A stretch of 64,000 nucleotides of DNA from Candidatus Magasanikiibacteriota bacterium (GCA_052033375.1 JBPOJQ010000006.1:24791-88790), one strand, 5' to 3'; shown: positions 3,478-58,004, numbered from the stretch's first letter. Numbers and translations: made by a program. The notes: generated by a model from the letters alone, not told the origin.

Positions 3478-4035
3478 TTATTCATCTGCATGGGTATTAA
3501 TCCAAATCTCCTGTTTCTCATGTCCAAATGCTACAAAAATAATATCTGGTTTATTTCTCTGTATTTCATTGATAATTTGTTGATTAATGCGTTTCTCTTC
3601 TTTATTCTTATAGACAATCGCACCGCCCCGGACAAAAAAATTGGGTCCTGGATGCATGCCTGCGACATGCAGTGTCGGGAAGGCTTGCTGGATATAATAA
3701 AATAACTTCTTGAGAGTTTTTGTTTTTCCTGAACCAAGTAGAAAGATTGATTTTTGCTCATGTTCTGCGATAGAGAGAAGCTCAAGCATAAAATCAACCC
3801 CGGTAATCCTATTCAACCTGCCTTCTGAAAACAGGACTAGTCCCCTGCCATCACACAGTGATAGATCAGCAGTATTCAAGATTTCCCGAAATGAATGATG
3901 GCGATATGCGGATACAATCATCTCAGGATTTGGAGTAAAGATACGATGAAGTCGCTCCTCGTGAAGAAACGCCTGCGCTCTGTTTTTTGCCTCATCAATA
4001 GTGACTTCATCAACCTTTACATCGAGGATATGCAT
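3478..4035 (-). CDS. WecB/TagA/CpsF family glycosyltransferase (TagA-like)
   Basis: RIFTPNPEMIV ... LNTADLSLCDGRGLV are motifs typical of the WecG/TagA family. Length is 185 aa. Confidence 0.65.
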   Translation of the reverse strand: MHILDVKVDEVTIDEAKNRAQAFLHEERLHRIFTPNPEMIVSAYRHHSFREILNTADLSLCDGRGLVLFSEGRLNRITGVDFMLELLSIAEHEQKSIFLLGSGKTKTLKKLFYYIQQAFPTLHVAGMHPGPNFFVRGGAIVYKNKEEKRINQQIINEIQRNKPDIIFVAFGHEKQEIWINTHADE

Positions 4036-36876: not shown

Positions 36877-37140
36877 TTAGGCAGCGGTCAAATGGTTGTT
36901 TACGAGTTTAGCCATTTCAAACATGGTCACCTCACTCTTGCCACCAAAGATTGCTTTAAGCTTATCATCTGCAAGAATGTTTCGTTTGTTCTTTGGATTC
37001 TGAAGATCATTCTTCTTGATATATTCCCACATTTTCTTTACTACCTGTGAGCGAGGCATAGGACCTGCTCCTACTACTGCTGCGAGCTCAGTTGAAACCT
37101 TGTATGGTCTCATGAGCGCTGGATTTGCTTTGCGTGGCAT
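36877..37140 (-). CDS. SWIB/MDM2 domain protein
   Basis: VSTELAAVVGAGPMPRSQVVKKMWEYIKKNDLQNPKNKRNI is a typical bacterial SWIB domain. Confidence 0.85.
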   Translation of the reverse strand: MPRKANPALMRPYKVSTELAAVVGAGPMPRSQVVKKMWEYIKKNDLQNPKNKRNILADDKLKAIFGGKSEVTMFEMAKLVNNHLTAA

Positions 37141-37311
37141 AGAGATATGATTAAATTATTAAAATGTACCATGCGAGATTAGTATAGCATTGACCGTTCC
37201 CCCTCGCAAGAGGGTACCCCCCTTCTCCATTTGAAACACCACAGAATCTAGGATATACTAGTGTCTACGCTGATAGATAAAAACATATACTAACATCCTA
37301 CAAAATCACCT

Positions 37312-38895
37312 ATGGCACTCTACCACAAACACCGACCGCAGACCTTTGATACTATTATTCATCAGGAACACATCACGACCACTCTGAAGAATGAAATCAC
37401 CGGAGGCATGGTAGCTCACGCATATCTTTTTTCTGGTCCGCATGGCGTAGGAAAGACAACAACTGCCCGTATTTTAGCGAAATCTTTGAACTGTAAAAAT
37501 CGAAAGTCTGATGAGCCAAATCCATGTGATCAGTGCGACTCATGCAAAGACATCTCGAATGCGCGATCAATTGATGTCATAGAAATTGACGCAGCCAGTC
37601 AGACAGGTGTCGATAATGTGCGAGAAAATATTATTGAAAATGCACAATTCAAACCTACACTTGGAAAATACAAAATTTTCATCGTAGATGAGGTGCACAT
37701 GTTGTCCACAGCTGCATTTAATGCACTCCTAAAAACACTTGAGGAGCCACCAGAACATGTCGTATTCATTCTTGCAACGACTGATGCACAAAAACTTCCA
37801 GCAACAGTAGTATCACGATGTCAGAGATTCACGTTCTCACGAATTCCTGATGAAACCACCAAAAAACATCTTCAATCAATCGCGAAAGAGGAAGGGGTAA
37901 CTATTGATGAGGTCGTGCTTGATGCAATTGTACGCAAAGCTCGTGGAGGCGCACGCGATGCAGTGAGCCTGCTCGATCAATTAATCGCAACCGGGGAAAA
38001 GCATCTTACGGCACAGGCAGCTTCACATATCATGCCAACTACATCAAATGAATCCCAAATCAGGTTTCTCTCACATCTAATCGAAAAAAATGCTATCGCA
38101 ACACTCGGTGACATTGAAATATTGAGTGAACAAGGAACACATCCGTATTTTTTCATGGAAGAAATCGTACAAATGCTCAGATTACTCCTAATCACATCGA
38201 TTGATGAAAAATTGGCAAAAAAAGAATCGTATCTTCCAGAAAGTGATATAGCAACATTACAATCACTCACCACACACATATCAAAACGCGATATCGTACG
38301 CCTGACAGACAGAACAATCGCTCGAATGCAGGAAGTGAAATCATCACTCCTCCCCTACCTCCCCCTTGAGCTTCTTGCTGTCGAGTGGTCTGCAGACGAA
38401 GAAGATGTCACTCCTCCTCCCAGCCGCCCTGTGGCAACGGCGCCCGCTGTAGTGGTGCCAAAACAACAACCCACTACTCCACAATCCCAGACATCAGTAT
38501 CGTCGCCCACAAGCAGAGAAGAGAAAAAGAGTGATATACCTCACACAGACAATCTGCCTCCTGCACCAGCAGACGCTGATTTATCCCAAGTAAAGAAAGC
38601 GTGGAATTCGCTCATCACTGAAATCGAAAAAACTACGCCATCGCTTATATTCATACTCAAAAACGCGATATTACTCTCATCAACACACGGAGTACTCAAA
38701 TTGAAGGTCGCCTATAGTTTTCATCAAGATAAAATCATGCAGGTAGCCACCCGAAAAAAAATAGAAGACCATCTCGCAACCATACTCGGATTCAGATTGT
38801 CACTCGAAGTAGAAATAGATGAAATGATGCAACAAAAAAATGCAGCCTCAGATCTCAATGATCTCGCGACAGCATTGGGCGGTAGTATTATTTAA
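37312..38895 (+). CDS. dnaX: DNA polymerase III subunit gamma/tau
   Basis: YLFSGPHGVGKTTTARILAKSLNC ... zinc module CDQCDSC ... sensor motifs. Length is 527 aa. Confidence 0.9.
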   Translation: MALYHKHRPQTFDTIIHQEHITTTLKNEITGGMVAHAYLFSGPHGVGKTTTARILAKSLNCKNRKSDEPNPCDQCDSCKDISNARSIDVIEIDAASQTGVDNVRENIIENAQFKPTLGKYKIFIVDEVHMLSTAAFNALLKTLEEPPEHVVFILATTDAQKLPATVVSRCQRFTFSRIPDETTKKHLQSIAKEEGVTIDEVVLDAIVRKARGGARDAVSLLDQLIATGEKHLTAQAASHIMPTTSNESQIRFLSHLIEKNAIATLGDIEILSEQGTHPYFFMEEIVQMLRLLLITSIDEKLAKKESYLPESDIATLQSLTTHISKRDIVRLTDRTIARMQEVKSSLLPYLPLELLAVEWSADEEDVTPPPSRPVATAPAVVVPKQQPTTPQSQTSVSSPTSREEKKSDIPHTDNLPPAPADADLSQVKKAWNSLITEIEKTTPSLIFILKNAILLSSTHGVLKLKVAYSFHQDKIMQVATRKKIEDHLATILGFRLSLEVEIDEMMQQKNAASDLNDLATALGGSII

Positions 38896-38980
38896 AAAAT
38901 TCAAAACTAATATCAGGTTATTGAGTGATAAAAAAAAGACTCCTCCAATTCGGAAGAGTCTTTTAGTATATACAATCGTA

Positions 38981-39523
38981 TTATTGAGCGTATATCTTAT
39001 CTCCACAATACGTTCCAGTAAAGCTTCCGGAAATCGTCAATTCTTTTCCAGTATACACACCAGTATCTGGAGTGAAGGTGGTCTCGTCAACACAGATCGT
39101 CATCTCTTCGCCTACCCCCGCTGGTTGCTTGCTAACCTTGGTCTGTACACCAAACCAGGTATATGCATCAGTATTCAAACCTTGTGCATCTCGAGCAAAA
39201 GCTCCGATTTTCTGTTCACCCGGCTTTGACTGATAACCAAAATCCAATGCATCTTCACAGGTGACCTGGTCATGATTATACAAATCTACTTCCTCGGTGC
39301 GATATTCTTTATTTACCAGCGTATACGCGACACCATGAGTCAAATTAGTAACTTCTTCTCCATCGACAACCACTTTGAGCGGTCCACACTTTGAACCTTT
39401 TGCGGAGGTTTCTGCGCCTGTGTTGGAACTAATATCACCCGACGAAGACGATGGTGAACATCCTGCCCCCACGAGAGTGAGTGCCAAGGCGCCCAAGAGA
39501 AGTCTGTATCCGATACTGTGCAT
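38981..39523 (-). CDS. hypothetical lipoprotein
   Basis: Lipobox LVGAGCS after a signal peptide. Length is 180 aa. Confidence 0.5.
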   Translation of the reverse strand: MHSIGYRLLLGALALTLVGAGCSPSSSSGDISSNTGAETSAKGSKCGPLKVVVDGEEVTNLTHGVAYTLVNKEYRTEEVDLYNHDQVTCEDALDFGYQSKPGEQKIGAFARDAQGLNTDAYTWFGVQTKVSKQPAGVGEEMTICVDETTFTPDTGVYTGKELTISGSFTGTYCGDKIYAQ

Positions 39524-39601
39524 AGAATACTAAAGATTAAAAAATAAAACTACATAAAAGTATAAAAGATTGTGGCACAGTACGCAAGAGTGGAAAAAAT
39601 A

Positions 39602-39928
39602 TTACCGCAATTCGATCGGATATCCATTCTCTCTCCACATACGCATACCTCCGACAACATTGCATACATTCGTAAGTCCTGCGATTTCGAGCTGTGTTGT
39701 GGCAAGCAGGCTTCTTCCACCGGATTGGCAAATGAGATATACCCGATCATAGGAAACCAGACGATCTTTTTCTTGTATAATCTGATCCAGAGGAATATTC
39801 AGTGCACCCTTGATTTTGCCACTCCTAATTTCAAAAGGCATCCGCACATCGACAATAATCCGACGCGGGTCATCATGTTCGAGCAATGAGTGTAGCTCCT
39901 GTACGGTGATTTCTTGTGGCATAAGCAT
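39602..39928 (-). CDS. rhodanese-like domain protein
   Basis: Active-site loop CQSGGRS. Length is 108 aa. Confidence 0.85.
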   Translation of the reverse strand: MLMPQEITVQELHSLLEHDDPRRIIVDVRMPFEIRSGKIKGALNIPLDQIIQEKDRLVSYDRVYLICQSGGRSLLATTQLEIAGLTNVCNVVGGMRMWRENGYPIELR

Positions 39929-39962
39929 AAATAGATAGACACGTCTGCTGAATAATAAAATC

Positions 39963-39990
39963 TTGACTTTTATTGTATTTTTGGTAAAAT
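39963..39990 (+). promoter_or_regulatory. sigma70-like promoter of tRNA-Gln (TTGACT-16-TAAAAT)
   Basis: Seen in the sequence about 30 nt upstream of the tRNA. Confidence 0.45.
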
Positions 39991-40019
39991 TTTCTAGTCA
40001 AATATATCATACCACATAT

Positions 40020-40090
40020 TCGGGGATCGTCTAATGGTAGGACTACAGGTTCTGGACCTGTGTATCGGGGTTCGAATCCCTGTCCCCGAG
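40020..40090 (+). tRNA. tRNA-Gln (anticodon CUG)
   Basis: Manual fold. Acceptor TCGGGGA/TCCCCGA. D-arm GTCT-AATGGTA-GGAC. Anticodon stem ACAGG/CCTGT with loop TTCTGGA (CTG at positions 34-36). T-arm CGGGG-TTCGAAT-CCCTG. Discriminator G. CCA not encoded. Confidence 0.85.
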
Positions 40091-40098
40091 CTAAAAAA

Positions 40099-40130
40099 AG
40101 AATATCGCCAATTGGATATATTCTTTTTTT
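40099..40130 (+). terminator. intrinsic terminator after tRNA-Gln (GAATAT...ATATTC + T7)
   Basis: Seen in the sequence. Confidence 0.55.
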
Positions 40131-40142
40131 AAGTCAGAGATA

Positions 40143-40261
40143 AAGAGGGATTCGAACGAGGGAAGGGTGAAACCGTGAGGTTTCACTGGACTGAGGAAAG
40201 TACACGAAAACCCGAAGGTTTTCGTGATATGTTCGAATAGCGAAGCGCCCTGTCCCCGAGC
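40143..40261 (+). repeat. tRNA-Gln 3'-end-derived element 1: starts with an inverted copy of the tRNA T-arm/3' region (GAGGGATTCGAAC) and ends with a direct copy of the tRNA 3' end (CCCTGTCCCCGAGC); internal perfect hairpins
   Basis: Direct comparison with tRNA positions 40072-40093. Internal hairpins GTGAAACC-gtgag-GGTTTCAC and CACGAAAACC-cgaa-GGTTTTCGTG. Confidence 0.6.
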
Positions 40262-40306
40262 AAAATATAAATACACCCATATAGGTGTATTTATATTTAT
40301 GATAGT

Positions 40307-40407
40307 GAGAGGGATTCGAAGGACGCGAGAGAAGCCGAGCGTGCGAGGCTTCGGTGCGCAGCGCCCCGGTACCCGAACGGAGTGAGGGGGAATCCCTGTC
40401 CCCGAGC
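40307..40407 (+). repeat. tRNA-Gln 3'-end-derived element 2: same architecture (GAGAGGGATTCGAA ... GGGGGAATCCCTGTCCCCGAGC)
   Basis: 21-nt match to the tRNA 3' end with the TTCG of the T-loop deleted. Internal hairpin GAAGCC-gagcgtgcgag-GGCTTC. Confidence 0.6.
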
Positions 40408-40418
40408 TAGTGACAGTA

Positions 40419-40763
40419 TTAATCTTTGGCGCGACGATAAATGACACCAGTGATAATCGAAGCAATTAATGCAAAGGTTATTAGTACAGTAATCCAATTT
40501 TGAGTAACCAAATACCAGATGAGTGTTGCAAACATTTTGCAAAATCCATACACAAATTGTATGGCCACATTCAGACTTTCATAGATGATGTTAAAAATAG
40601 GAATTTGTATCATTCCTGTACTATTATTAACAATAACAAAACAGCTAATACTGATAATAGCTAATAGCGCTATAATTATCCATTCAATTTTGTGCTTTTT
40701 TGAGACCATATTATCATAAAAGACGGCGTAGCCATCTCTATATTTGTGTAGTTTTGCGACCAT
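40419..40763 (-). CDS. small hypothetical membrane protein (3 TM) at the edge of the AT-rich island
   Basis: 114 aa, hydrophobic. AT-rich composition like the island. Confidence 0.4.
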   Translation of the reverse strand: MVAKLHKYRDGYAVFYDNMVSKKHKIEWIIIALLAIISISCFVIVNNSTGMIQIPIFNIIYESLNVAIQFVYGFCKMFATLIWYLVTQNWITVLITFALIASIITGVIYRRAKD

Positions 40764-40880
40764 GTCCTAAGGAATAGTTTTTAGGTCTTAAATTTTTTTT
40801 ATTTTACGTCATTTAAGTATTAAAGGCAAGAAATTGTCTTTTTAGAATAAATTAGATACTATAGGGTAAATTACGATGCT

Positions 40881-42884
40881 ATGTATCTATCGCAACTTAT
40901 AGTAAGAAATTATAGATCAATAAAACAGTTAAATATTAATTTTGAAAAAGGAAAAAATATTATTGTTGGAAAAAATAACGCAGGAAAATCCAATATAATA
41001 AAGGCAATAGATCTTATACTTGGAGACACAAGTCCTACATACGAAAAGTTAGAAAATATAACTGATAATGATTTTTTCGGCGGTGACACTTCAAAAAACA
41101 TTTTAATTTTTGCAAAATTAAATCGTGAAGCAAAAGAACCTCTTAATTATGAGGAACTATACAAGTGCTATGGTTTTTATAGAGATACTAACCAGGTGAA
41201 TTTACCTGAAAATAATCCAGATATATTTTCTAGACATTTAGCTGTTTTATTTAAAACTAATCCTGAAGACTTGGAACGCGCAAGAAAAAAATATATTAAT
41301 CCAAAATTAAAAAATCAACGGACCTTTGAAAATGAATTTGATAACAAACATGAATTCGGCCTAGTATTTTATGCTCATAAAGATGATCACGGCAGAATTA
41401 ACAAAGAAATGAGATTTATATATAGAGAAGGATCTGGTCAAAATTGGGTGGTCGCTTTTTCGGCAGCAGCAAGGAATGGATTATTACAAAGCGCAATAAT
41501 TCCTTCTTTTAGGGATCCTCAGAATCAATTAAGAATAAGTAGTTGGAGTTGGTATGGAAAATTATTAAAAAGCGTGGTCGATCCTAATAATAAAAATTTA
41601 CAAAAAGCATTTCAAGAGGTTAAAATTGCATCTGAAGATGTTTTTTCTCAGCTTGAAACTAAAATTAATAATAGTAAAGTTAAAGTTGCTTTTCCAAATA
41701 CTAAAATTTCCTTTCAATTTAATCCAGACACTAAGCAGGACATTCATAAGAGTGCATTGGTTTATGTTGACGATGGTTTTAAGAGTCAATTACAAGATAA
41801 AGGATCGGGAATACAAAGTGCCGTGATAATAGGATTATTTGATTTTTATACACGAGAGATTGCACATCAAGGAAATTCATTGCTGGCAGTTGAAGAACCA
41901 GAACTCTATTTACATCCTCATGGACGAAGAGTGCTCTCTAACAGATTAGACGATTTTTTAGATGGGAATAAAAATCAAGTTATTATTACTACCCATTCAC
42001 CTGAATTTATTAGTACAGCAAATGATAGGTTTAATATAGTAGTGGCTTGTAAAAATGAAGAAGGAAAGACAGAGGCAAAAAATGTTAATTTTAGTAATGC
42101 TAAAGAAAGACAAATTTTAATAAAAAATCAAAATGCTGAAATGTTTTTTGCTGATTGTGTAATTTTGGTTGAAGGCGGAGGTGATAAATATATTCTTGAA
42201 ATGGTGGCTAAAAAATTTGGTGAAGAAAAAAATATAGGATCAAATTGGTTAAATGATAATAACATCTCTGTTATTCCTGTAATTGGAAAATCCGAATTTT
42301 ATAAATATGCTAAAAAATTAAAAGAAGCGAATATTGATTGTTATATTTTTGCAGATTTTGATTATCTTTGTTCAAAATTAGCAGAATGTTTAACCGAACT
42401 CGATTATAAAGAATTAAAAAATGATCATAACACTGTTAATGGTAAGATTAAAAAGATTCCAAATGAAAAATGTGAGGCGTGTAAACAAAATATTAAAGCA
42501 CAATCTTACCCTAAGAGAATAGATGAATTAACAGATAAAGCCCTAAAGACAGAGGTGGAATCTTTTATTGCAAAACTATCAGATAGTAAAATTTATATTT
42601 GTGCCGATGAATTAGAAGATCGTTATAGAGACAAAAACTTAATTAAAGGTATCAGTGGTAAAGAAGAAGCAGCTTTACATATAGTGGGGCATATTTTAGA
42701 AACTAATAAAGATATTAATGACCTTATTGAGTTAAAAGATTTTTGGAATATTTTTGATAAAATATTAGAACATAAAAAAATACCACCTAAAACACAAAAT
42801 AGCTCAGAAAAGAAAGTCCCCACAGACTTACCTAATGATCTTGATAGTAACTTAGAATTAGAATCAAATGAGAACATTTTTTAA
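40881..42884 (+). CDS. OLD-family ATP-dependent endonuclease: N-terminal ABC-type ATPase + C-terminal TOPRIM domain (GajA / P2 Old / AriAB-like)
   Basis: Walker A GKNNAGKSN. Walker B/D-loop LLAVEEPELYLHPHGRRVL. H-loop VIITTHSPEF. TOPRIM with CVILVEGGGDKYILE (catalytic Glu) and IFADFDYL (DxD). Length is 667 aa. First gene of a tight three-gene operon. Confidence 0.8.
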   Translation: MYLSQLIVRNYRSIKQLNINFEKGKNIIVGKNNAGKSNIIKAIDLILGDTSPTYEKLENITDNDFFGGDTSKNILIFAKLNREAKEPLNYEELYKCYGFYRDTNQVNLPENNPDIFSRHLAVLFKTNPEDLERARKKYINPKLKNQRTFENEFDNKHEFGLVFYAHKDDHGRINKEMRFIYREGSGQNWVVAFSAAARNGLLQSAIIPSFRDPQNQLRISSWSWYGKLLKSVVDPNNKNLQKAFQEVKIASEDVFSQLETKINNSKVKVAFPNTKISFQFNPDTKQDIHKSALVYVDDGFKSQLQDKGSGIQSAVIIGLFDFYTREIAHQGNSLLAVEEPELYLHPHGRRVLSNRLDDFLDGNKNQVIITTHSPEFISTANDRFNIVVACKNEEGKTEAKNVNFSNAKERQILIKNQNAEMFFADCVILVEGGGDKYILEMVAKKFGEEKNIGSNWLNDNNISVIPVIGKSEFYKYAKKLKEANIDCYIFADFDYLCSKLAECLTELDYKELKNDHNTVNGKIKKIPNEKCEACKQNIKAQSYPKRIDELTDKALKTEVESFIAKLSDSKIYICADELEDRYRDKNLIKGISGKEEAALHIVGHILETNKDINDLIELKDFWNIFDKILEHKKIPPKTQNSSEKKVPTDLPNDLDSNLELESNENIF

Positions 42885-42896
42885 GATTTTCATAAA

Positions 42897-44360
42897 ATGG
42901 AAAGCAATAGATTTTTTCAAAAACTAAGTGAAGTATCTCCATTAGTAAACAATTACGCGTTTAATTTTTTTGAAATATCCAAGTATGGGAGTTTTAAAGA
43001 ATCACTTGAGAAAGTAAATCATAAAGATTTCATAAGTAAATGTTACGAAGGTTTTAAAATCGCTCAGGATAAATTAATCGAAAATATTTTGGAGATTGAA
43101 TCAGAAATTGAGAAAATAAAAAGCGAAATCAATGAATATGAAAGAGGTAAAAAGAAATCATCTTTAAAAGATGATTCTCATTATTTAGGAATGAATCGAC
43201 AAAAAAATGACCTAATTTTTCAAAGAGCTTCTTTTAGAGAATTAGCCAATGTTATTGTCTGGACAATTTTTTTAGAACAAAGAACAGATATTAAGAGTTT
43301 TATAAAATTAAGTAACAGTGATGGATATTTAAAAGACAGAGATATTGAAAATTGCATAAAGGTTGCAAGACAAATAAATAATGATAGTAATACTTTTGCT
43401 CTAATTACTGACATTACCTCTACTCTTCATGTTGGAGACCTGATTGTAGTGGAAGAAGGTAAAATATCTGTAACTGAAGTTAAAAGAGATACTAAGATAA
43501 ATAATTTAATATCAAATATTGTTGAATATCCAAAAGATCCTAAAGATACAAAAATTTTTCTTGAAGAACTCATACAAACTTATGGTGTTAAGGGTGTTAA
43601 GCAGCTTCAAAGAAACATGCGTCAAATGATAAGAATGCATAATATTAAAGAGTACATTGAAAAAGATGAAGTTTTTGATTTTGATTTAAATCAAAAGAAA
43701 TATGCTTTTGAGGTTTCAACTCCGGATATAGATTTCATGAAATTCTTAGAAATGGCATTAGATGAGTTTTACAAACATGAAAGAAAAATGTTTGTTTTTC
43801 CTACAGACTGTTGTTTCGTAGGAATTGTAAGAAAAAATGGAGAAAAATCAGAAATAGCTTTTAAATTGGATTTTAAACATGACATATATCATAGACTATT
43901 TAAAAATTGGGACGAATGCGCGTTTAGTAATAAAGATAAGCCAGGATTTACAAAAGAAAATATTCCAGAAATGTTTTTATATCATAAGTTGGATATATAT
44001 TCTTTTAAAGACAAAGTATTTTTTCCGGCACAGCGGCCACTTTTTTTGAGTCTGAAACAGGAATATGTAATTGACTTGTTGACTGACAAGATTGCTATCT
44101 ATATTTATTTTGATCCAGATCGTCTAATAGAAATGGCTAAAGAAAGAAAATTAAAAATGGAATTTGTAAAAAAGACCTCGAAAATAAAAGATCATCCTTA
44201 TAAAAATGAATTTCCTTTTTTCGAAAAGGGTTATATGCAGGTAAGTAATAAGGAAACAAAACTAATAATAGGCTATGGAATTATATTGAGAATAGTTTAT
44301 GAATTGCAGTCTGGATATAATTTGATTGAACATTTAAAAGAAGACCTTAAAAAGATTTAG
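42897..44360 (+). CDS. 487-aa protein of unknown function, second gene of the OLD-family operon; possible PD-(D/E)xK-type core (LHVGDLIVVEEGKISVTEVK)
   Basis: 12-bp gap to the upstream gene. No P-loop or helicase motifs, so not a GajB/UvrD-type partner. GD...EVK spacing is compatible with a restriction-endonuclease-like fold. This is an inference only. Confidence 0.45.
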   Translation: MESNRFFQKLSEVSPLVNNYAFNFFEISKYGSFKESLEKVNHKDFISKCYEGFKIAQDKLIENILEIESEIEKIKSEINEYERGKKKSSLKDDSHYLGMNRQKNDLIFQRASFRELANVIVWTIFLEQRTDIKSFIKLSNSDGYLKDRDIENCIKVARQINNDSNTFALITDITSTLHVGDLIVVEEGKISVTEVKRDTKINNLISNIVEYPKDPKDTKIFLEELIQTYGVKGVKQLQRNMRQMIRMHNIKEYIEKDEVFDFDLNQKKYAFEVSTPDIDFMKFLEMALDEFYKHERKMFVFPTDCCFVGIVRKNGEKSEIAFKLDFKHDIYHRLFKNWDECAFSNKDKPGFTKENIPEMFLYHKLDIYSFKDKVFFPAQRPLFLSLKQEYVIDLLTDKIAIYIYFDPDRLIEMAKERKLKMEFVKKTSKIKDHPYKNEFPFFEKGYMQVSNKETKLIIGYGIILRIVYELQSGYNLIEHLKEDLKKI

Positions 44361-44366
44361 TTTATA

Positions 44367-45149
44367 GTGTTTACTATGAATTTTGATATAGAAGTTTTTA
44401 ATAAAAAAACTCAAGATTTTATTAAAGAAATAGAGCAAGAATTTGGTCATGAGATTAGAGTTGAATACATTGATTTAGAAGAAGGGCATAGTGGTTTTTG
44501 TAATGTCGATGAAACGGGTACACCAACTGTAACATTAAATTCCAATGAAAAAGATGCTGAGAAAATAAAACATTTTTTAATTCATGAAACTTATCATCTT
44601 AGATTACTATTAAATAAGTTTCCAATGTTTGCTTCTGTGGGAAATGCGCAGGTAGTCTATGTGCCAGAGTACTATAAATATATAAGTAACAATTTTTGGG
44701 ATAAAATTGTGCATTCATATTTTTATCCTAAAATAAAAAATGAACTAGATCATGATCCGTATAAACATTTCGAACCAGATTTTAATTTGATTAAAAATAG
44801 TTTATTGGAAAAGAAATTTAGTGAGAACTCAGATGACGTAAAAAAAATGCGAATAATCGGTTGGTATCACCAAATTTGGGCCGAAGGGAAAAAAGAGGAT
44901 CTATTAGAGTATGAGAGTTTAGTTAAGGAGTATCATAATAGTCTCGGTTTAAAAGAGAGCGAAAAAATGATTAAAATATTTGAAAAAAGAGATATTAAAA
45001 ATTCTAAGGATCTGATCGATATTTTCATTGAATTTTTTAATGCTATACACGAGGATAGAGAAATAATTTTAGTAAGTGAAGAGGTTAAATTGAGAGGGAG
45101 TTTTGAATTGCAGGTCGCATATTTTACTGTTTATAAGCTGGATAAATAA
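44367..45149 (+). CDS. HExxH zinc metallopeptidase-like protein (ImmA/IrrE/M78-like motif HETYH), third gene of the operon
   Basis: LIHETYHLRLL motif. 6-bp gap to the upstream gene. Length is 260 aa. Confidence 0.45.
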   Translation: MFTMNFDIEVFNKKTQDFIKEIEQEFGHEIRVEYIDLEEGHSGFCNVDETGTPTVTLNSNEKDAEKIKHFLIHETYHLRLLLNKFPMFASVGNAQVVYVPEYYKYISNNFWDKIVHSYFYPKIKNELDHDPYKHFEPDFNLIKNSLLEKKFSENSDDVKKMRIIGWYHQIWAEGKKEDLLEYESLVKEYHNSLGLKESEKMIKIFEKRDIKNSKDLIDIFIEFFNAIHEDREIILVSEEVKLRGSFELQVAYFTVYKLDK

Positions 45150-45250
45150 GTTCCTATTTCATCCCACAGCCAGAGCTAATAAAAAATACCCTATCCACGG
45201 GTATTTTGTTTTTACATTATCATGATATACTATATGCCTAATTTTAGTAT

Positions 45251-45916
45251 ATGATCGACCAACTCGTCACCTACATCCAATCACTCATCGCGACCTACGG
45301 CGCATGGGGAGTATTCCTCGCAACCATGATTGAGGAAATCATCGCCCCAATCCCCTCACCTATCGTCCCTCTTGCCGCAGGCTTTTTCCTCATCACCCCC
45401 GAGATAACATCACTCATACAAATATTGATCAAAATAGGCGTCGTCATTGCTCTCCCCGTGACCGCGGGCATTACCATAGGATCTGCCTGTGTATATGCGA
45501 TTGGTTTTTTTGGCGGGAAACCAGTACTTGATCGGACCAAAAAATGGCTGGGCTTCGGATGGGACGATGTACAAAAAGTAGAAACTCGTCTCCACAAAGG
45601 AAAGAAAGACGAATGGGTGTTATTTTTTCTCCGCATGATTCCGATTGTACCAGGTGTCGCTATTTCCGGTTTATGTGGCATCATACGCTATCCGTTTTTC
45701 AAATTCATCACTATCACCATGCTCGGGGCATGTCTGCGAGCATTCATTCTCGGAATTATTGGATGGAAAGTGGGAGAAGTATATGGCGCGTTTGCACATA
45801 CGGTAGAAAAGAGTGAAGATTATATTCTATATGCGGTTATCGGCATATTGTTCATATGGGGAGTATATTACTTTTTTAAAAAACGTACATTAAAAAATAA
45901 CATCACACAACCATAA
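45251..45916 (+). CDS. DedA/VTT family membrane protein
   Basis: GAWGVFLATMIEEIIAPIPSPIVPLAAGF is the typical DedA N-terminal motif. Length is 221 aa. Confidence 0.75.
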   Translation: MIDQLVTYIQSLIATYGAWGVFLATMIEEIIAPIPSPIVPLAAGFFLITPEITSLIQILIKIGVVIALPVTAGITIGSACVYAIGFFGGKPVLDRTKKWLGFGWDDVQKVETRLHKGKKDEWVLFFLRMIPIVPGVAISGLCGIIRYPFFKFITITMLGACLRAFILGIIGWKVGEVYGAFAHTVEKSEDYILYAVIGILFIWGVYYFFKKRTLKNNITQP

Positions 45917-45918
45917 AT

Positions 45919-46644
45919 ATGCATCGGTCATCACATGCTATTCTCGTAATCCTCACAGCACTCATCACTCTCGGTGCTGGCTGTACCAACACAGAGATGA
46001 AAAGAACTTACATCTCAAGCGATGGACCCACCGCAGAAGAACTATTTGTAAAAAAAGAATCTACGCCAACTAACAACAATCAATCGACCTCGAGCCCACC
46101 ATCTCAATTACTAGCTACTTCACCTAATTCACCTACTACAACCACAAATTCTATGGAATTCAATGCTTCAAAACATTACACTGCGATACTACATACCAGC
46201 AAAGGTAATATTGAAATCGAACTTAATTTTGGACAAACGCCAAATACGGTAAAAAACTTTGTCGATCTCGCAAGAAAAAATTTCTACGATCAGACAATTT
46301 TCCACCGCGCAATCAACGGGTTCATGATCCAGGGTGGCGACCCCAATGGTGACGGTACAGGCGGACCTGGGTATCGATTCAATGACGAGCCATTCACCGG
46401 GGAATACACGCGTGGCGCAGTGGCTATGGCAAATGCAGGCCCAAACACCAATGGTAGTCAATTCTTTATCATGCATGCCGACAACCCCCTACCAAAAGCC
46501 TATACAATCTTTGGACGTGTAATCAAAGGAATGGAAGTGGTAGATGCGATTGCAACAGACAAAGTCACGATGAGCTCATCAGGAGAAATGTCAAAACCTG
46601 TATCGCCTACATCAATTACAACCGTCGAAATTCAAGAAAAATAG
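45919..46644 (+). CDS. lipoprotein peptidyl-prolyl cis-trans isomerase (cyclophilin type)
   Basis: Lipobox LGAGC. Cyclophilin core FHRAINGFMIQGGDP ... MANAGPNTNGSQFFI. Confidence 0.9.
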   Translation: MHRSSHAILVILTALITLGAGCTNTEMKRTYISSDGPTAEELFVKKESTPTNNNQSTSSPPSQLLATSPNSPTTTTNSMEFNASKHYTAILHTSKGNIEIELNFGQTPNTVKNFVDLARKNFYDQTIFHRAINGFMIQGGDPNGDGTGGPGYRFNDEPFTGEYTRGAVAMANAGPNTNGSQFFIMHADNPLPKAYTIFGRVIKGMEVVDAIATDKVTMSSSGEMSKPVSPTSITTVEIQEK

Positions 46645-46717
46645 CTTACCATTGCTATTTTGAGAGAAATCTGATACACTCCCCGCTTATTCAAGAAATT
46701 CAATAATATACGTTCAT

Positions 46718-47248
46718 ATGGGTAATTTCAATCGAGGTGGCGGAAGATCATTTGGTGGCAAAAAATTCGGTGGCGACCGAGGTGGATTCCGAGGTGGCGA
46801 CCGCAGAGAAGGTGGCAGATCAGAAATGCATGCTGCTACGTGTAGTGAATGTGGCAACGCATGTGAAGTCCCCTTCCGACCTACCGGAGCCAGACCTATT
46901 TTCTGCAGCACGTGTTTTGGTAAGCAGAAAAGCCAGGAAGGCAAAAGTTTTGGCGGAGGATCACGTGAAAGAAGTTTTGACCGACCACGCTTTGAAAACA
47001 AACGCCCTGATTTTCGACAGGCTCCTATTCAGGACAACAAAGCAATCAACGAACTCAAACAACAGATGGAGATTATAAACAACAAACTTGAGCGAATTCT
47101 AAAAGCAGTGAGCCATGAATTTTCTGAAGAAAAACAACCAGAAAAAAAGAAAGAGTCAAAAGCACCAAAAAAATCTGAAGAGAAGAAAGAAGAAGTGGTT
47201 TCTGAAAAACCAAAAGCAAAAAAAGCTAAAACGAAAAAGAAGAAATAA
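46718..47248 (+). CDS. Arg/Gly-rich zinc-ribbon protein with Lys-rich C-terminal tail (putative nucleic-acid binding)
   Basis: RGG/GGR repeats. CSECGNAC-x13-CSTC zinc ribbon. KKxx tail. Length is 176 aa. Confidence 0.5.
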   Translation: MGNFNRGGGRSFGGKKFGGDRGGFRGGDRREGGRSEMHAATCSECGNACEVPFRPTGARPIFCSTCFGKQKSQEGKSFGGGSRERSFDRPRFENKRPDFRQAPIQDNKAINELKQQMEIINNKLERILKAVSHEFSEEKQPEKKKESKAPKKSEEKKEEVVSEKPKAKKAKTKKKK

Positions 47249-47262
47249 TAGCTTACAAAAAA

Positions 47263-47291
47263 ACATCCCGACTCAATCGGGATGTTTTTTA
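47263..47291. terminator. intrinsic terminator (ACATCCCGA-ctcaa-TCGGGATGT + T6), between convergent genes
   Basis: Seen in the sequence. Confidence 0.65.
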
Positions 47292-47305
47292 TTCAGGAAA
47301 AAATA

Positions 47306-48064
47306 TTATGATTTATTCTCATGCTGATCGCAATAATACGCAATTGCATCGCGCATGAATACTGCCAACCCTGGACGAAATTTCTCATAGTATGCAGTAA
47401 ACCGTGGATCCTCTACATACATCTTCCCCAAATTGCGAAACATCTCGTAGCTGCAATCATAAAAGAAATTCACCCCTTCATGACTTTGCTTAATAAGCTT
47501 CTGTACATCAGAGTGTTCAATTCCCTTATCCATCGCGTCAGCAATTGCCTGCGTATGCTTTTTTCCATCTGCTTTTAGTTTTTCCATTTCTTTTTTTGTC
47601 ATCGTACCCACTTTCGCCATACTCTGACGGTACGCGTCGCTATTCCCCCACCGCTCCTTTACTTCATCCTGATACTGTTTTACCTCAGCGTCTTTGAACA
47701 CGTCATACAGTTCCTCATCGTTAATTTTGTGATTATTACTCATAGTTTTAATAGTTTTATTAATTGAATTAATTAATTTTTCAAGTCTCGCCTGCTTTAA
47801 TCGTATTAATTTTTTCTGATCTTTCAGCGCTTCGACTACGCTAAACTGAGGACGATTAAGCATACGCTTGATGTCTTCCAGTGGAAACTCTAGTTCGCGG
47901 AAAAAGAGTATTTGTTGCAAACGAATAAGTTCGGCATCCTCGTAATAACGATATCCATTCTTTTTGATGACCGAGGGCTTCAAAAGACCAATTTCATCAT
48001 AGTAATGAAGGGTGCGAACACTAATTCCTGCCAATTGTGCGAGACTGTGGACGGTATACGACAT
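47306..48064 (-). CDS. MerR family transcriptional regulator with TipAS-like C-terminal effector domain (Mta/TipAL-type)
   Basis: MSYTVHSLAQLAGISVRTLHYYDEIGLL gives the MerR HTH. A coiled-coil linker and a C-terminal roughly 140-aa TipAS-type domain follow. Confidence 0.8.
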   Translation of the reverse strand: MSYTVHSLAQLAGISVRTLHYYDEIGLLKPSVIKKNGYRYYEDAELIRLQQILFFRELEFPLEDIKRMLNRPQFSVVEALKDQKKLIRLKQARLEKLINSINKTIKTMSNNHKINDEELYDVFKDAEVKQYQDEVKERWGNSDAYRQSMAKVGTMTKKEMEKLKADGKKHTQAIADAMDKGIEHSDVQKLIKQSHEGVNFFYDCSYEMFRNLGKMYVEDPRFTAYYEKFRPGLAVFMRDAIAYYCDQHENKS

Positions 48065-48180
48065 AGATAGGATCCTATAATACCTATACTAAACTATAAC
48101 GTAACGTTAGGGTCAAGAAAAGTTATCAACACGAGCACTCTGAGAGCAAAATAAAGTAAATATGCTATAATTTTGACACT

Positions 48181-49122
48181 ATGCCTGTCTATCTCTCAAT
48201 TATTATATTGATCGCGTTGTTTGGTCTTTTGGGATTTTCTGCAAACATTGTAGTCGATAATATAAAAAAAATTACACACAAACTCGGTGTGCCTATTTTC
48301 CTATTGGGACTAATTCTCGGATTACTCACCTCACTTCCCGAACTCTCGATTGCAATAAACGCAGCGATACGAGGAGTCGAGGATGTGTCAGTCGGAAATC
48401 TGCTTGGAGGAATTACAGTATTATTGGGATTAATTCTCGGATTGAATCTAGTACTCAACCGCAAAGTAAAGACCGATGGAAAAATAACGACACCACTCCC
48501 CGGTTTTTTACTCCTCATACTTCCTCTTATCATGGGATTAGACGGAACACTTGGCATCGGTGATGGAATTATTCTCTGCATCGGATATATCGCCGTACTC
48601 ATACACTTTTACAAACAAAATCACTATACTGCCGACCACCCTCATCCAGAAATCACAAAATACAACAAAAAAATAGCAAAAGAAATTGTCCTGATCGTCG
48701 GTGGATCGCTCGTCATCGTCGGTAGTTCAAATATCATGATACGCATCACAACCGATCTACTAAACCAATTCAACATATCGGGATTTTTGGTCGGGTTGAT
48801 GATTTTTTCTCTGGGAACCAATTTGCCAGAACTGACAGTTACCATCACTTCATGGAGAAAAAAAGTAAAAGAAGTAGCATTCAGTCATCTACTCGGTTCA
48901 GCGATTGCAAATCCGCTCATACTCGGTAGCATCGCATTACTTAGTCCCATATCCATCACCGTAGATCGATCATTCATGCTTATTCTGTATTTCTTCCCAA
49001 TTCTATTTATCATGCTGTTATACTTTTATCACTCACACAAAAATTTAAGCCGTGTTGAAGGCGTATTTTTGCTTCTCATGTTCATTACTTTTGGATACCT
49101 GCAAATGTACCTGTTGTATTGA
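48181..49122 (+). CDS. CaCA-family cation/Ca2+ antiporter (YrbG-like)
   Basis: Two alpha-repeats with GxSxPEL-type motifs (LTSLPELSIAI and GTNLPELTVTI). Multiple TM helices. Confidence 0.7.
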   Translation: MPVYLSIIILIALFGLLGFSANIVVDNIKKITHKLGVPIFLLGLILGLLTSLPELSIAINAAIRGVEDVSVGNLLGGITVLLGLILGLNLVLNRKVKTDGKITTPLPGFLLLILPLIMGLDGTLGIGDGIILCIGYIAVLIHFYKQNHYTADHPHPEITKYNKKIAKEIVLIVGGSLVIVGSSNIMIRITTDLLNQFNISGFLVGLMIFSLGTNLPELTVTITSWRKKVKEVAFSHLLGSAIANPLILGSIALLSPISITVDRSFMLILYFFPILFIMLLYFYHSHKNLSRVEGVFLLLMFITFGYLQMYLLY

Positions 49123-50329: not shown

Positions 50330-51367
50330 TTATTCCACAATCTTCGGTCGTAATTCTTTCAGAATATCTTCCAACTCCTCAAAACTTTCCACTTTCATCA
50401 ATTTCATCCGCAAATCTTTCGCTCCGTCCATTCTCTCCCCCATTCGTTCATTTTTGAAATACCACGCGAGATGTTTACGAAATGTAGGCATCGATCGTTT
50501 CTGAATTTCTTCTGGAGTAATACCATCAGCCTTGTTTTTCTTTCCCATCGCCCGGATACGTGACTGATACATCATATGGAGTTGTGCATGCTCCAATACC
50601 ACTCTCACTCGCTCAACCAGTGATACAGAAAAATCTGGATGCATATATTCTTTGAAAAACCATGGATTCCCGAGCGCCCCCCGAGCAATCAATACCCCAT
50701 CAGCGCCAGTAATCTCTAGAGCTTCATCGACCTGTCGTGGTTTGTGTATATCTCCATTTGCAAGTAGTGGAACAGTCGCGATTTTTTTTGCTTCAGCAAT
50801 TCTACCCCAATCAGAAACCCCAGTGTACCCCTGCTCTTTGGTACGACCATGTACCGTAATCAATTGTGCACCAGCTTCTTCGATTGCAGGAATGAAATAT
50901 TTGAAATCATCAGGTGAAGACCAGCCGAGACGAATTTTTATGGATACAGGAGTTGCACCAATTGCACGTTTAATTTCCCGAATGATATCTTGGGCAAGCT
51001 TTGGGTCTTTCATGAGGGCACAGCCATTAAAATTACTTGTAATTTTGTATACTGGACAACCCATATTGATATCAATACCTTCGGGGCCTGCATGCTCCAT
51101 CACAATCGCTGCTGCACGAGCCATCGTGAGTGGGTCTGAGCCAAAAATCTGCTGCACAATAGGGCGCTCTGCATCGACAAAATCAGTCATACCGAGAGTT
51201 TTTTCATTATCACGAACAATAGCTTCCGCAGAAACCATTTCACGAAACACGACATCTGCCCCGCCGATACTTCTCACAATTTGACAAAAGGCCGAATCAG
51301 TCATGTCAGCCATTGGTGAAAGCGCGAGAATTTTTTTATTTTTTTTCAAAATATTTGTAATCCACAT
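50330..51367 (-). CDS. tRNA-dihydrouridine synthase (Dus family)
   Basis: LSPMADMTDSAF ... NMGCP ... TIM-barrel FMN motifs. The start is taken at MWITN; the in-frame extension to 51460 lies in GC-rich foreign-looking DNA. Confidence 0.85.
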   Translation of the reverse strand: MWITNILKKNKKILALSPMADMTDSAFCQIVRSIGGADVVFREMVSAEAIVRDNEKTLGMTDFVDAERPIVQQIFGSDPLTMARAAAIVMEHAGPEGIDINMGCPVYKITSNFNGCALMKDPKLAQDIIREIKRAIGATPVSIKIRLGWSSPDDFKYFIPAIEEAGAQLITVHGRTKEQGYTGVSDWGRIAEAKKIATVPLLANGDIHKPRQVDEALEITGADGVLIARGALGNPWFFKEYMHPDFSVSLVERVRVVLEHAQLHMMYQSRIRAMGKKNKADGITPEEIQKRSMPTFRKHLAWYFKNERMGERMDGAKDLRMKLMKVESFEELEDILKELRPKIVE

Positions 51368-51473
51368 AGAGATAATATGCAGTGGGTGTTGGAAAGACGC
51401 GTACGGTCCCCCCGAGACACCCACCACTCTGACATGTACCGCACTACTCCACGCGCTCATCAGCGCGAGAATA

Positions 51474-51608
51474 CTACGGAGAATCGTTAATCAACAGCGT
51501 ATACAGGAGTACGACTTCTGCAACGCGGTCGATGAGCCGGACCAACACAGCGCAGGGTCCGCCACGGAGTTGCTGACTCAGGGCGACCAGCGCTTCGATG
51601 AACGACAT
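51474..51608 (-). CDS. hypothetical 44-aa ORF in GC-rich island
   Basis: RBS AGGGGG 6 nt upstream of the ATG. Very weak call. Confidence 0.2.
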   Translation of the reverse strand: MSFIEALVALSQQLRGGPCAVLVRLIDRVAEVVLLYTLLINDSP

Positions 51609-51621
51609 GAGAACCCCCTTG

Positions 51622-51867
51622 TTACAGAACCACTTCCATGAAGAGTCCTTCGACCATCTCGACGACCTCCGCCCAGAACTGGACGAGGCTCTCGACGAGA
51701 TTCGCCAGGAATTTCGGATGAGTGACATCCGATTTCAGGCGACCGAGGTCGACACCGAGCTGACCGATGATGGTCGCACCCGCACGAAGCAGGCAGACCG
51801 GGATCTCGGAGAGAGCCGCGATCATGCGATCAGTCGTGTCCATATCTTCCACCGCTCCAATTGCCAT
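51622..51867 (-). CDS. hypothetical 81-aa protein in GC-rich island
   Basis: GGAG about 9 nt upstream of the ATG (MAIGAVEDMD...). Composition is foreign to the host. Confidence 0.3.
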   Translation of the reverse strand: MAIGAVEDMDTTDRMIAALSEIPVCLLRAGATIIGQLGVDLGRLKSDVTHPKFLANLVESLVQFWAEVVEMVEGLFMEVVL

Positions 51868-52018
51868 GTTTTTCACTCCTCTCACCAAGACTTATTTCTT
51901 GCTTGGTTTGCATCTATAAAGAAAAATTCTTTGCAGATGTAAACCAAATATACCTTGATTGCCCGGGGTGCGCCTTTTGCTAAGCACATGCCCCGGACAA
52001 TCGTTTCACCCCCTTGCA

Positions 52019-56725: not shown

Positions 56726-57350
56726 CTCGATTCTCCTTGGCAGCCTCTGATGGCGGGATTGCCAGCTGCGCCAGATGTACATACTATACAGCCAGCGCAG
56801 TAGACAATAGTTGATAGATGAATCTACCAAAAAGACAAACAATTGTCAAGATCTAGGCATAAAGTATGAACTACCACCGGCTGAACGCCGGTGGTTTCGT
56901 TCTGCTGGCTACGCCAGCGCAAGCATTCGTGACTATATGAAGGTATGAGAGTCCAATGGGGGGGTTCGGGGGGGTGAAAACTGTCTGAGCTACGAGAGTA
57001 GAATCATACACTAATCTTAGTGAGGCGAGTTTTTTCACCCCCGAAAGTTTTTGGTACTTTTTGGTTACAAAAAGTACGGATAAGGTACTCCGTATTGCTT
57101 TCAAGCTAGATGGTCACCACAGTGTCTATTCTACTCTCCGAAGAAAAGCTAAACGCAATTCCAAGAGCTTCGCGTGTAAACGCACTCACCTGTCTGACGC
57201 TGGTGATTTTTAGGGTAAAAAAATTGAAGACCCTGTACTTGTGGTACAGGGTGCCAGTTAGACGCTAACTGGAAAACGTGTGGCAGGATTGCCGGATCAA
57301 GGACTAAGTTCCAAGGATCCAAAAGAACCCAAGGTTCAAAGTGAAAAGGA

Positions 57351-58004
57351 CTACTTGCGGGGCTGCACGAACACCCAGCGGCTGTCAGGGTCCCAGACGT
57401 AGTCGGGGTAGCCATTGCAGCAGTAGAGCCACAGACCGTCACCGCTGCGCTCGACGTAGAACACGTCCAGGTACCCGCCCGAGTCAGAGATCGGCTCCAT
57501 ACCAATGAGGAGCAACTTGCCCATGGGCTGATCCTTGTACTGCAGGCGCAGCTGGGGACCGACCTCAGCCGGGCAGCGTTCGAGACCGAGCTCGATCGCA
57601 CGCTTGTAGATTTCACGACGCGTGGCACCCTTCGCGAAGCCGAGTTCACCGACCGAGACATTGACCAGGTCGAGTTCGACCTCCTCGGTCGCCACCGTAA
57701 AGGCAGGATTCCCGAGGATATCGGTCGCAACTCCGCCGACCTTCCCGCCCGCCTTCACGATGGCCAGACGGAACTGACGAGCATTCTTCATGCCCGTGCC
57801 GAGCTTGATCGTCTTCCAGACTTTGAAGTCGGATTTTGACGGAGAGAGGCCGGACAGGAATTTCTTGAGCCCATTCGGGTTCTCGATCCAGCCCTGCATG
57901 ACATAGCAAGGCATGTCAGGAAGATTCTCCGCGATCCTCGCGATCAACTTTGCAGTCTGCTTATCCATGGCGGTTTTTCCTATTGGTTTTCGCCATTTAT
58001 CCAC
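57351..58004 (-). CDS. hypothetical protein, GC-rich (horizontally acquired-looking)
   Basis: 217 aa. Composition is strongly GC-shifted. No motif recognised. Confidence 0.4.
   Translation of the reverse strand: MDKWRKPIGKTAMDKQTAKLIARIAENLPDMPCYVMQGWIENPNGLKKFLSGLSPSKSDFKVWKTIKLGTGMKNARQFRLAIVKAGGKVGGVATDILGNPAFTVATEEVELDLVNVSVGELGFAKGATRREIYKRAIELGLERCPAEVGPQLRLQYKDQPMGKLLLIGMEPISDSGGYLDVFYVERSGDGLWLYCCNGYPDYVWDPDSRWVFVQPRK

Follow-up and report, generated by a model that had tools for sequence, protein, structure and literature searches.

We examined a 64,000-nucleotide stretch of a Candidatus Magasanikiibacteriota genome (GCA_052033375.1 JBPOJQ010000006.1:24791-88790, hereafter the window) and, within it, an AT-rich islet of ~4.75 kb (~40410-45180) near a tRNA-Gln gene, which carries three co-directional open reading frames (ORFs) on the + strand, here called genes 1, 2 and 3 (Table 1). 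On our estimate it is slightly better than an even bet that the islet is stacked defence cargo, made up of a Class-1-like OLD nuclease (gene 1), a member of a predicted nuclease family that is undescribed and associated with defence (gene 2) and an orphan ORF (ORFan; gene 3). The first-pass annotation of the window had instead proposed that an OLD-family nuclease, a PD-(D/E)xK-like protein and an HExxH metallopeptidase act here as one new defence system. Comparison with other genomes did not support that proposal: the triad does not recur, and neither the loci of three relatives of gene 1 nor the 37 loci sampled for the gene 2 family show it anywhere outside the window, whereas genes 1 and 2 each occur separately. 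A single three-gene system is thus unsupported, because gene 3 is an orphan, the relatives of gene 1 lack these partners and the gene 2 family has no fixed neighbour.

Results

Gene 1 is best called a Class-1-like OLD nuclease

Gene 1 encodes, beyond reasonable doubt to judge from its sequence, an OLD-family nuclease. The protein matches the Pfam families AAA_15 (1.7e-42, residues 1-377), AAA_21 (9.3e-17) and OLD-like_TOPRIM (1.1e-14, residues 422-494), and every motif that the first-pass annotation had quoted when it placed gene 1 in this family is present. The ATPase carries GKNNAGKS at residue 30, LLAVEEPELYLHP at residue 334 and THSP at residue 371, the key residues being K36 of the Walker A motif, the Walker B-like LLAVEE at 334-339 and H372 of the H-loop; fused to it is a C-terminal TOPRIM domain with VEGGGDK at residue 430 (E431) and DFD at residue 492 (D492/D494). 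In PADLOC, the Old model (1.7e-52) outranks the best GajA model (8.4e-46). When gene 1 was compared with PDB sequences, the sole OLD-family chain matched was TsOLD (6P74, 2.5e-20); further matches were to the ATPase heads of PtuA, SMC, Rad50 and RecF, and no chain named GajA was found within 1e-3.

OLD proteins are classed by gene context: Class 1, to which TsOLD has been assigned, stands alone, Class 2 lies beside the UvrD-like GajB and Class 3 is found within retrons (PMC10568477). A V. cholerae OLD of Class 1 has been shown to protect by itself: it nicks DNA and so prevents replication of the phage genome (PMC12392090). We call gene 1 Class-1-like because its relatives lack genes 2 and 3 (in the contexts of three relatives, and with gene 2 following at 12 nt in the window itself), because TsOLD is its sole OLD match in PDB and because Old is its top PADLOC model. 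The gene 1 clade is large, with 770 of the scored candidates falling within E ≤ 1e-20; a good number of these proteins show ~50% identity and come from Bacteroidota and even from an archaeon. No relatives of gene 1 were found on viral contigs. The three closest relatives with usable context have no homologue of gene 2 or gene 3 beside them: the nearest (66% identity, locus L020) sits alone between an RNase III gene and a copper-resistance operon, another (57%, L021), which has an integrase in its vicinity, lies behind an HmaC-like AAA+ gene, and the third (55%, L054) lies behind a type III restriction-modification pair and has nothing downstream. Like the islet, the OLD relatives are mostly GC-poorer than their surroundings (for example, 0.31 vs 0.42 in L020).

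As in P2 Old, TsOLD and the V. cholerae OLD, in which one protein suffices and an ABC ATPase controls a two-metal TOPRIM nuclease, gene 1 joins an ABC ATPase to a fused TOPRIM domain and keeps all catalytic motifs. It further resembles these Class 1 proteins in having no helicase, reverse transcriptase (RT) or AriB gene adjacent and in having a solo relative at 66% identity; it is longer than TsOLD (667 vs 528 residues) and has a C-terminal extension. In Gabija (Class 2), too, an OLD-family nuclease belongs to a defence locus of several genes, and GajA models do match gene 1; however, Old outscores all of them, no UvrD/GajB gene occurs in or near the islet (no helicase ORF lies within 37000-49000), and gene 2 is not a helicase and has no GajB match. 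Unlike Class 3 OLD loci, the window has neither an RT nor an msr/msd RNA: no RT domain was detected in neighbouring ORFs, and an Rfam scan of 38500-46500 (E ≤ 1) returned the tRNA, one chance microRNA match and no retron non-coding RNA. In Class 4 (PARIS), AriA and the DUF4435 protein AriB are separate, whereas the TOPRIM domain is fused within gene 1; no separate AriB-like TOPRIM ORF was found, and genes 2 and 3 have no PADLOC match. On the lack of a nearby GajB helicase, separate AriB or retron RT, the first-pass annotation was right.

The 57%-identity relative merits separate mention. At positions 2-1219 of L021, 1 nt upstream of the OLD gene, is a gene for a 405-aa protein that matches the AAA+ part of the PADLOC HmaC model (6e-28), and the HmaC-like gene and the OLD gene together possibly represent a different two-gene arrangement within the OLD clade.

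Gene 2 belongs to a large unnamed family with a predicted PD-(D/E)xK-like core

Gene 2 has no match in Pfam, PADLOC, NCBIfam or PHROGs and, as already noted at first pass, contains no P-loop. A word-indexed search returned eight relatives, several of them labelled as Candidate Phyla Radiation (CPR) bacteria. When 1.84 billion representatives were then searched with a profile, gene 2 fell into a family of 727 clusters, counted at 50% identity, at E ≤ 1e-3; of these, 512 remained at a threshold of 1e-10 and 148 at one of 1e-30. The family is as nameless as gene 2 itself: ten distant members gave no confident match in Pfam or PADLOC, subsets of them gave none in NCBIfam or PHROGs, and 70 members compared with Pfam at E ≤ 5 yielded no recurrent weak family. 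A literature search with the accession of an E. coli member, WP_000982358.1, gave no match, and an Abi review held nothing relevant. As far as these libraries and this literature show, the family is undescribed.

The family is nonetheless strongly conserved at particular positions. All of 70 diverse members carry D172, D181, E194, R239 and Q243, which are 96-99% conserved in a 157-sequence alignment; K196 is 97% conserved, and K196, G199, N202, Q236 and D261 are each at least 90% conserved among the 70. An AlphaFold2 (AF2) model of gene 2 built from nine sequences (predicted local distance difference test score, pLDDT, 83.6; predicted template modelling score, pTM, 0.84) shows long N-terminal helices, a central PD-(D/E)xK-like core and a C-terminal alpha/beta region. 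The modelled core consists of a helix (150-160), three strands (166-170, 182-186 and 189-193) and a further helix (200-210); D181 opens the second of these strands and E194-x-K196 closes the third, such that the D...ExK residues fall on consecutive beta-strands between helices. Because the invariant D..D..ExK..R..Q signature has this beta-beta-beta-alpha setting, gene 2 is probably a PD-(D/E)xK-type nuclease, as predicted from motif and secondary structure. The possible PD-(D/E)xK core put forward at first pass is therefore upheld at the level of motif and secondary structure, but not by a match of fold: Foldseek with the whole gene 2 model, in which the core accounts for ~100 of 487 residues, found nothing below E = 0.2 in PDB and BFVD, and the gene 2 profile returned nothing from PDB sequences. 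The CPR subfamily additionally keeps D304, H328, H332 and C341 (window ~43806-43920), and C305 is conserved in 70% of the wider family; residues 304-341 possibly bind a metal within the C-terminal domain.

Among named proteins, gene 2 is most usefully set against the solitary PD-(D/E)xK defence nucleases (type IV restriction enzymes such as Mrr, Shedu SduA, Hachiman HamA), with which it shares D...(D/E)xK on consecutive strands, independence of a methylase, and residence in defence islands and prophages. It differs from them in its long N-terminal helices and C-terminal domain, in lacking any Pfam or PADLOC match, SduA and HamA included, and in matching no solved fold. Type II Gabija (Liu-DS1), which combines a Gabija component with an unrelated, unclassified putative nuclease, is alike in outline to the pairs of a UvrD helicase and a gene 2 homologue described below (L016 and L017), but the window has no pair of a GajB-like helicase and a MazF-like GajC. 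GajC is MazF-like and encoded upstream of GajB (PMC13069673). Identity of gene 2 with GajC was provisionally rejected, the two being set apart by the described MazF-like fold of GajC and by gene order only.

Members of the gene 2 family adjoin many different defence genes

The genomic context of the family was assessed at 37 non-redundant loci, together with enterobacterial and Bacillus records. All-against-all clustering of the neighbours at the 37 loci revealed no conserved partner. Among the 111 proteins encoded within two genes on either side, the top Pfam families were OLD and UvrD (three loci each), followed by integrase and ResIII (two each). An OLD gene is adjacent at only 3 of the 37 loci, namely in the window, L007 and L011, and these OLD proteins represent three lineages with 25-27% mutual identity. 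In L007 a canonical GajA (3.7e-140) and GajB (2.2e-91) are followed by an overlapping gene 2 homologue; in L011 an Old-type gene is convergent and overlapping with the homologue. A UvrD-like helicase gene lies immediately upstream of the homologue in L016, where the two overlap, and in L017. Elsewhere the neighbour is a type III restriction-modification system (L005) or BanI restriction-modification with an integrase (L009), and methylases are found in L001, L016 and L017. Further neighbours include serine and tyrosine recombinases, RteC, Mu-like prophage and tail genes, RelA/SpoT, DUF2971 and a Strawberry-notch-like helicase, and some distant relatives adjoin metabolic genes (acyl-CoA dehydrogenase, glycosyltransferase). 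In a rough neighbour-joining tree, even the members nearest to gene 2 (~40% identity) have differing neighbours, which are OLD, a methylase, a type III system, Gabija or UvrD. The family genes are usually GC-poorer than their flanks.

The same pattern extends to well-studied bacteria. In an E. coli lambdoid prophage (NZ_CP116176.1 2370026-2372415, L060), a gene annotated 'AbiH family protein' lies 90 nt ahead of that for WP_000982358.1 (463 aa), which matches the hidden Markov model of the gene 2 family at E = 7.7e-97; 65 of 5426 complete E. coli genomes cover at least 80% of this stretch. The same pair, 90% identical, is present on a phage-plasmid-like replicon of Raoultella (L055), and matches to the family also occur on Klebsiella and Enterobacter plasmids. 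On Pantoea plasmids, as in P. agglomerans (NZ_OW970317.1 4635-7101, L056), an Abi gene non-homologous to AbiH is followed after 17 nt by a family member 56% identical to that of E. coli. Between Pantoea and E. coli, the downstream family gene is retained and the upstream defence gene is exchanged. The enterobacterial 'AbiH' may, for its part, be a two-gene unit. On a B. cereus megaplasmid (NZ_CP129006.1 4272-7378, L059), a family member split into three ORFs lies 35 nt past an RT gene, in an island that also carries Avs1a, an ABC-three-component system and an integrase. Overall, the family behaves like an autonomous, horizontally mobile defence-island gene that often sits right downstream of another defence gene.

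Three of these loci have further features. Positions 4905-11593 of L007, a metagenomic CPR-like contig, hold co-directional genes for a PIF1/RecD-like helicase, GajA, GajB and the gene 2 homologue, with a tyrosine integrase and a serine recombinase alongside, and this could be a four-gene extended Gabija locus. In L005 a tRNA-Gln(TTG) gene (3921-3995) lies 1.5 kb before a helix-turn-helix gene, the type III restriction-modification system and the gene 2 homologue, and in L017 a tRNA-Ser gene (228-317) lies 240 nt ahead of the UvrD helicase and the gene 2 homologue.

Gene 3 is a lineage-specific ORFan

Gene 3 is a real long ORF in stop-rich DNA of 28% GC, and no relative of it was found in 5.8 billion clusters, in plasmids, in phages or among the ORFs near gene 2 homologues. 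It matches nothing in Pfam, NCBIfam, PADLOC, PHROGs or PDB sequences, and its single-sequence AF2 model is unusable (pLDDT 40.6). We regard it as a lineage-specific ORFan, as far as sequence comparison goes. The HExxH motif for which it had been called a metallopeptidase does exist, as HETYH (residues 73-77), where a predicted helix behind three strands ends. However, an HExxH also appears by chance in 5% of shuffled versions of the protein, which is rich in His and Glu, and the protein matches no peptidase family and has no homologue. With that chance expectation for its sole motif, 'metallopeptidase' is a possibility and not a finding. The earlier view that the islet matches no catalogued system holds as of PADLOC-DB 2.0.0, in which genes 2 and 3 match no model.

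A probable insertion of foreign DNA into the end of tRNA-Gln

The islet has 28% GC, compared with ~41% in its surroundings, as expected from the low-GC island of ~4.8 kb reported at first pass. GC is 0.26-0.32 over ~40500-45250 and 0.38-0.48 in both flanks, and this is the single trough of such depth within the window. Genes 1, 2 and 3 have GC values of 0.289, 0.272 and 0.284, respectively, with 0.17-0.23 at third codon positions (GC3), whereas the flanking dnaX, rhodanese, DedA/VTT and cyclophilin genes have a GC of 0.43-0.46 and a GC3 of 0.37-0.46. The ORF coordinates bear out the tight three-gene unit described earlier, with spacers of 12 and 6 nt between genes of the same direction.

The tRNA-Gln(CTG) gene is the sole tRNA found in the window. 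Its last 20 nt, GAATCCCTGTCCCCGAGCTA, form the first copy (40074-40093) of a direct repeat that has a second exact copy at 40390-40409 and a 75% copy at 40244-40263. Repeats of the tRNA end are thus present, as the first-pass annotation had it, and the AT-rich DNA begins ~320 nt past the tRNA, right behind the last repeat copy at 40390-40409. We read this exact copy as an attL-like left border, with the boundary at 40410. The intervening 40094-40409 consists of two GC-rich segments, A and B, which share the same start, AGAGGGATTCGAA, and each of which ends in a copy of the tRNA end. Segment A has two perfect hairpins (8 and 10 bp) and a fold z-score against shuffles of -3.2 on the + strand and -4.4 on the - strand; segment B folds no better than its shuffles (z -0.9). 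Neither matches an Rfam family, and the two could be leftovers of earlier insertions or an unfamiliar small RNA.

The right boundary was placed at ~45160-45180. Just past the gene 3 stop codon is a degenerate copy of the tRNA end, ATCCCACAGCCAGAGCTA, with 13 of 18 matches; once the tRNA end and its two repeats are excluded, three other sites on both strands of the window (128 kb) match at 13/18 or better. This copy is a candidate attR-like right border (roughly p = 0.01 for its position) and possibly the displaced original tRNA end. It is followed by a terminator-like hairpin that may be the original tRNA terminator; the region has just two such sites, and shuffles lead one to expect 2.3, which makes the hairpin weak evidence alone. 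The divergent 114-aa ORF at the left end of the islet has no Pfam, PADLOC or PHROG match. Neither this ORF nor the degenerate repeat copy and the hairpin had been noted at first pass. No recombinase domain was detected in any islet ORF, that is, in the 114-aa ORF or in genes 1-3, and integrase and excisionase genes are missing.

With a bordering tRNA gene, direct repeats of its 3' end and deviant composition, the islet has the hallmarks of a tRNA island, and the horizontal acquisition suggested at first pass is supported: the islet is best explained as foreign DNA put into the 3' end of tRNA-Gln. It is like other tRNA-targeting genomic islands in its 3'-end insertion site, direct repeats and sharp contrast in composition, and differs from them in being only 4.75 kb long, in lacking an integrase or excisionase and in the two tiny repeat-bounded segments that separate it from the tRNA. 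The islands of gene 2 homologues in L005 and L017 likewise begin near a tRNA gene.

Apart from the islet, two 1-kb bins are unusually GC-high for a window of 41% GC, at 51000-52000 (0.50) and 57000-58000 (0.53).

Table 1. Features of the islet and its left flank, in window coordinates.
Feature	Coordinates	Strand	Basis or remark
tRNA-Gln (anticodon CTG), presumed integration target	40020..40091	+	ARAGORN; Rfam tRNA, 57.8 bits
Segment A, GC-rich, hairpin-rich, terminating in the 75% tRNA-end copy	40094..40263	+	
Segment B, GC-rich, terminating in the exact tRNA-end copy (40390-40409)	40264..40409	+	
114-aa ORF, divergent from gene 1, having two strongly hydrophobic stretches	40419..40763	-	GC 0.32, similar to the islet
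Gene 1, OLD-family nuclease, 667 aa	40881..42884	+	Pfam, PADLOC, PDB sequence match, motifs
Gene 2, member of a large unannotated family, 487 aa	42897..44360	+	
Gene 3, ORFan, 260 aa, GTG start	44367..45149	+	
Degenerate tRNA-end copy, 13/18 matches	45161..45178	+	Just past the gene 3 stop
Intrinsic-terminator-like hairpin, then T-run, closing the three-gene unit	45183..45207	+	

Discussion

The explanation we favour for the islet is that of stacked cargo, with defence genes that would each work alone. An element would have delivered the three genes together to tRNA-Gln and later lost its recombinase; because no integrase is left in the islet, it would now be either fixed in place or mobilised by a recombinase from elsewhere. 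Gene 1 would act as a single-protein OLD, whose ATPase-controlled TOPRIM domain nicks or degrades DNA and thereby stops phage genome replication. Gene 2 would be a Mg2+-dependent PD-(D/E)xK-type nuclease in which D181 and E194-x-K196 bind the metal and D172 and R239/Q243 complete the active site, while the long N-terminal helices may serve oligomerisation and the C-terminal alpha/beta domain target recognition. Its family would travel independently among phages, plasmids and defence islands and would most likely form an autonomous second barrier, for example as a solitary nuclease that senses foreign DNA by its modification or its ends; since no partner methylase is present, gene 2 would need another cue to tell self from foreign. 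The tight spacing makes it probable that genes 1-3 are co-transcribed, and independent defence genes are often co-transcribed in such islands.

Several observations weigh against this explanation. Spacers of 12 and 6 nt, a shared base composition and a lone terminator are all typical of a true operon, such that the genes may be functionally coupled. Class 1 is defined by a solitary gene (PMC10568477), whereas gene 1 is not solitary here and heads a three-gene unit. An OLD or UvrD helicase gene directly adjoins 5 of about 21 loci of the close (CPR-type) subfamily of gene 2, which is above random placement, and sometimes does so with overlapping frames (L007 and L016). In addition, the defence and nuclease roles suggested for the three proteins come from sequence and models. 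The adjacency to OLD and UvrD genes lends most weight to the main rival of stacked cargo, in which gene 2 is the partner of OLD- or UvrD-type proteins, a nuclease or sensor subunit in the place of GajB, and gene 3 is irrelevant cargo. OLD and UvrD are the commonest neighbour families of gene 2 homologues; the OLD genes adjoined belong to three lineages (those of the window, of the GajA-GajB locus L007 and of L011), homologues lie directly behind a UvrD helicase in L016 and L017, and the adjacency arose several times independently within the close subfamily. There is also a precedent for exchanging the nuclease partner of GajB, in the type II Gabija pair of GajC and GajB (PMC13069673). We nevertheless consider such a two-component system unlikely, at perhaps one chance among several. 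Neither OLD nor UvrD is directly adjacent at 32 of the 37 family loci, members 40% identical to gene 2 adjoin a methylase (L001) or a type III restriction-modification system (L005), and the enterobacterial members sit behind AbiH or another Abi gene. The nearest relatives of gene 1 have no gene 2-like partner, and the L011 pair is not an operon because its genes are convergent.

The single new system of OLD, PD-(D/E)xK-like protein and HExxH metallopeptidase, in which the peptidase might for instance activate or regulate the nucleases, would account for the close spacing, shared composition and single terminator; it would also fit the position of the gene 3 HExxH behind predicted beta-strands and a helix, and the lack of any PADLOC model for genes 2 and 3. 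We judge it improbable, and call it the weakest of the defence readings because the triad is unique to the window: it is seen nowhere else, genes 1 and 2 are each found without the other two, and gene 3 has no homologue in all collections searched, no peptidase family, a model pLDDT of 40.6 and a motif that arises in 5% of shuffles. More doubtful still is a role outside defence, with the genes helping to maintain, replicate or repair a decayed mobile element, or else being decaying cargo that has no current role. The loss of the integrase would suit such a fate, some distant relatives of gene 2 do have metabolic neighbours, and an archaeal OLD-family ATPase works in the cell cycle and not in defence (PMC12796447). 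However, all three ORFs are intact in stop-rich DNA of 28% GC, the catalytic motifs of gene 1 are intact, and the annotated neighbours of both families are mostly restriction-modification, Abi, Gabija, Avs and mobile-element genes.

With stacked cargo as the preferred explanation, the OLD gene itself is ordinary, being one more Class-1-like OLD, in a lineage with gene 2 homologues from CPR bacteria. The useful result is gene 2, which represents a large family that is nameless in Pfam, NCBIfam, PADLOC and PHROGs, has no solved structural relative and spans CPR bacteria, Bacteroidota, Enterobacteria, Bacillus and phages, with at least 727 clusters. The family shows the traits by which defence genes are discovered, namely low relative GC, carriage on phages, plasmids and integrative elements, and defence-like neighbours (restriction-modification, Gabija, OLD, Abi, RT and Avs). 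We tentatively suggest, at clearly less than even odds, that gene 2 belongs to a new and widespread anti-phage family that has a hitherto unseen overall fold around a PD-(D/E)xK-like site and acts either as a single-gene system or as a promiscuous downstream module; in the latter case it would work with whichever OLD, Gabija, UvrD, type III restriction-modification, AbiH, Abi_2 or RT gene precedes it. That members of the family are encoded next to AbiH in E. coli prophages (65 of 5426 complete genomes) opens the prediction to direct testing in a common laboratory host. Were it borne out, bacterial defence would gain a new nuclease family, and the enterobacterial 'AbiH' loci would perhaps prove to be two-gene systems.

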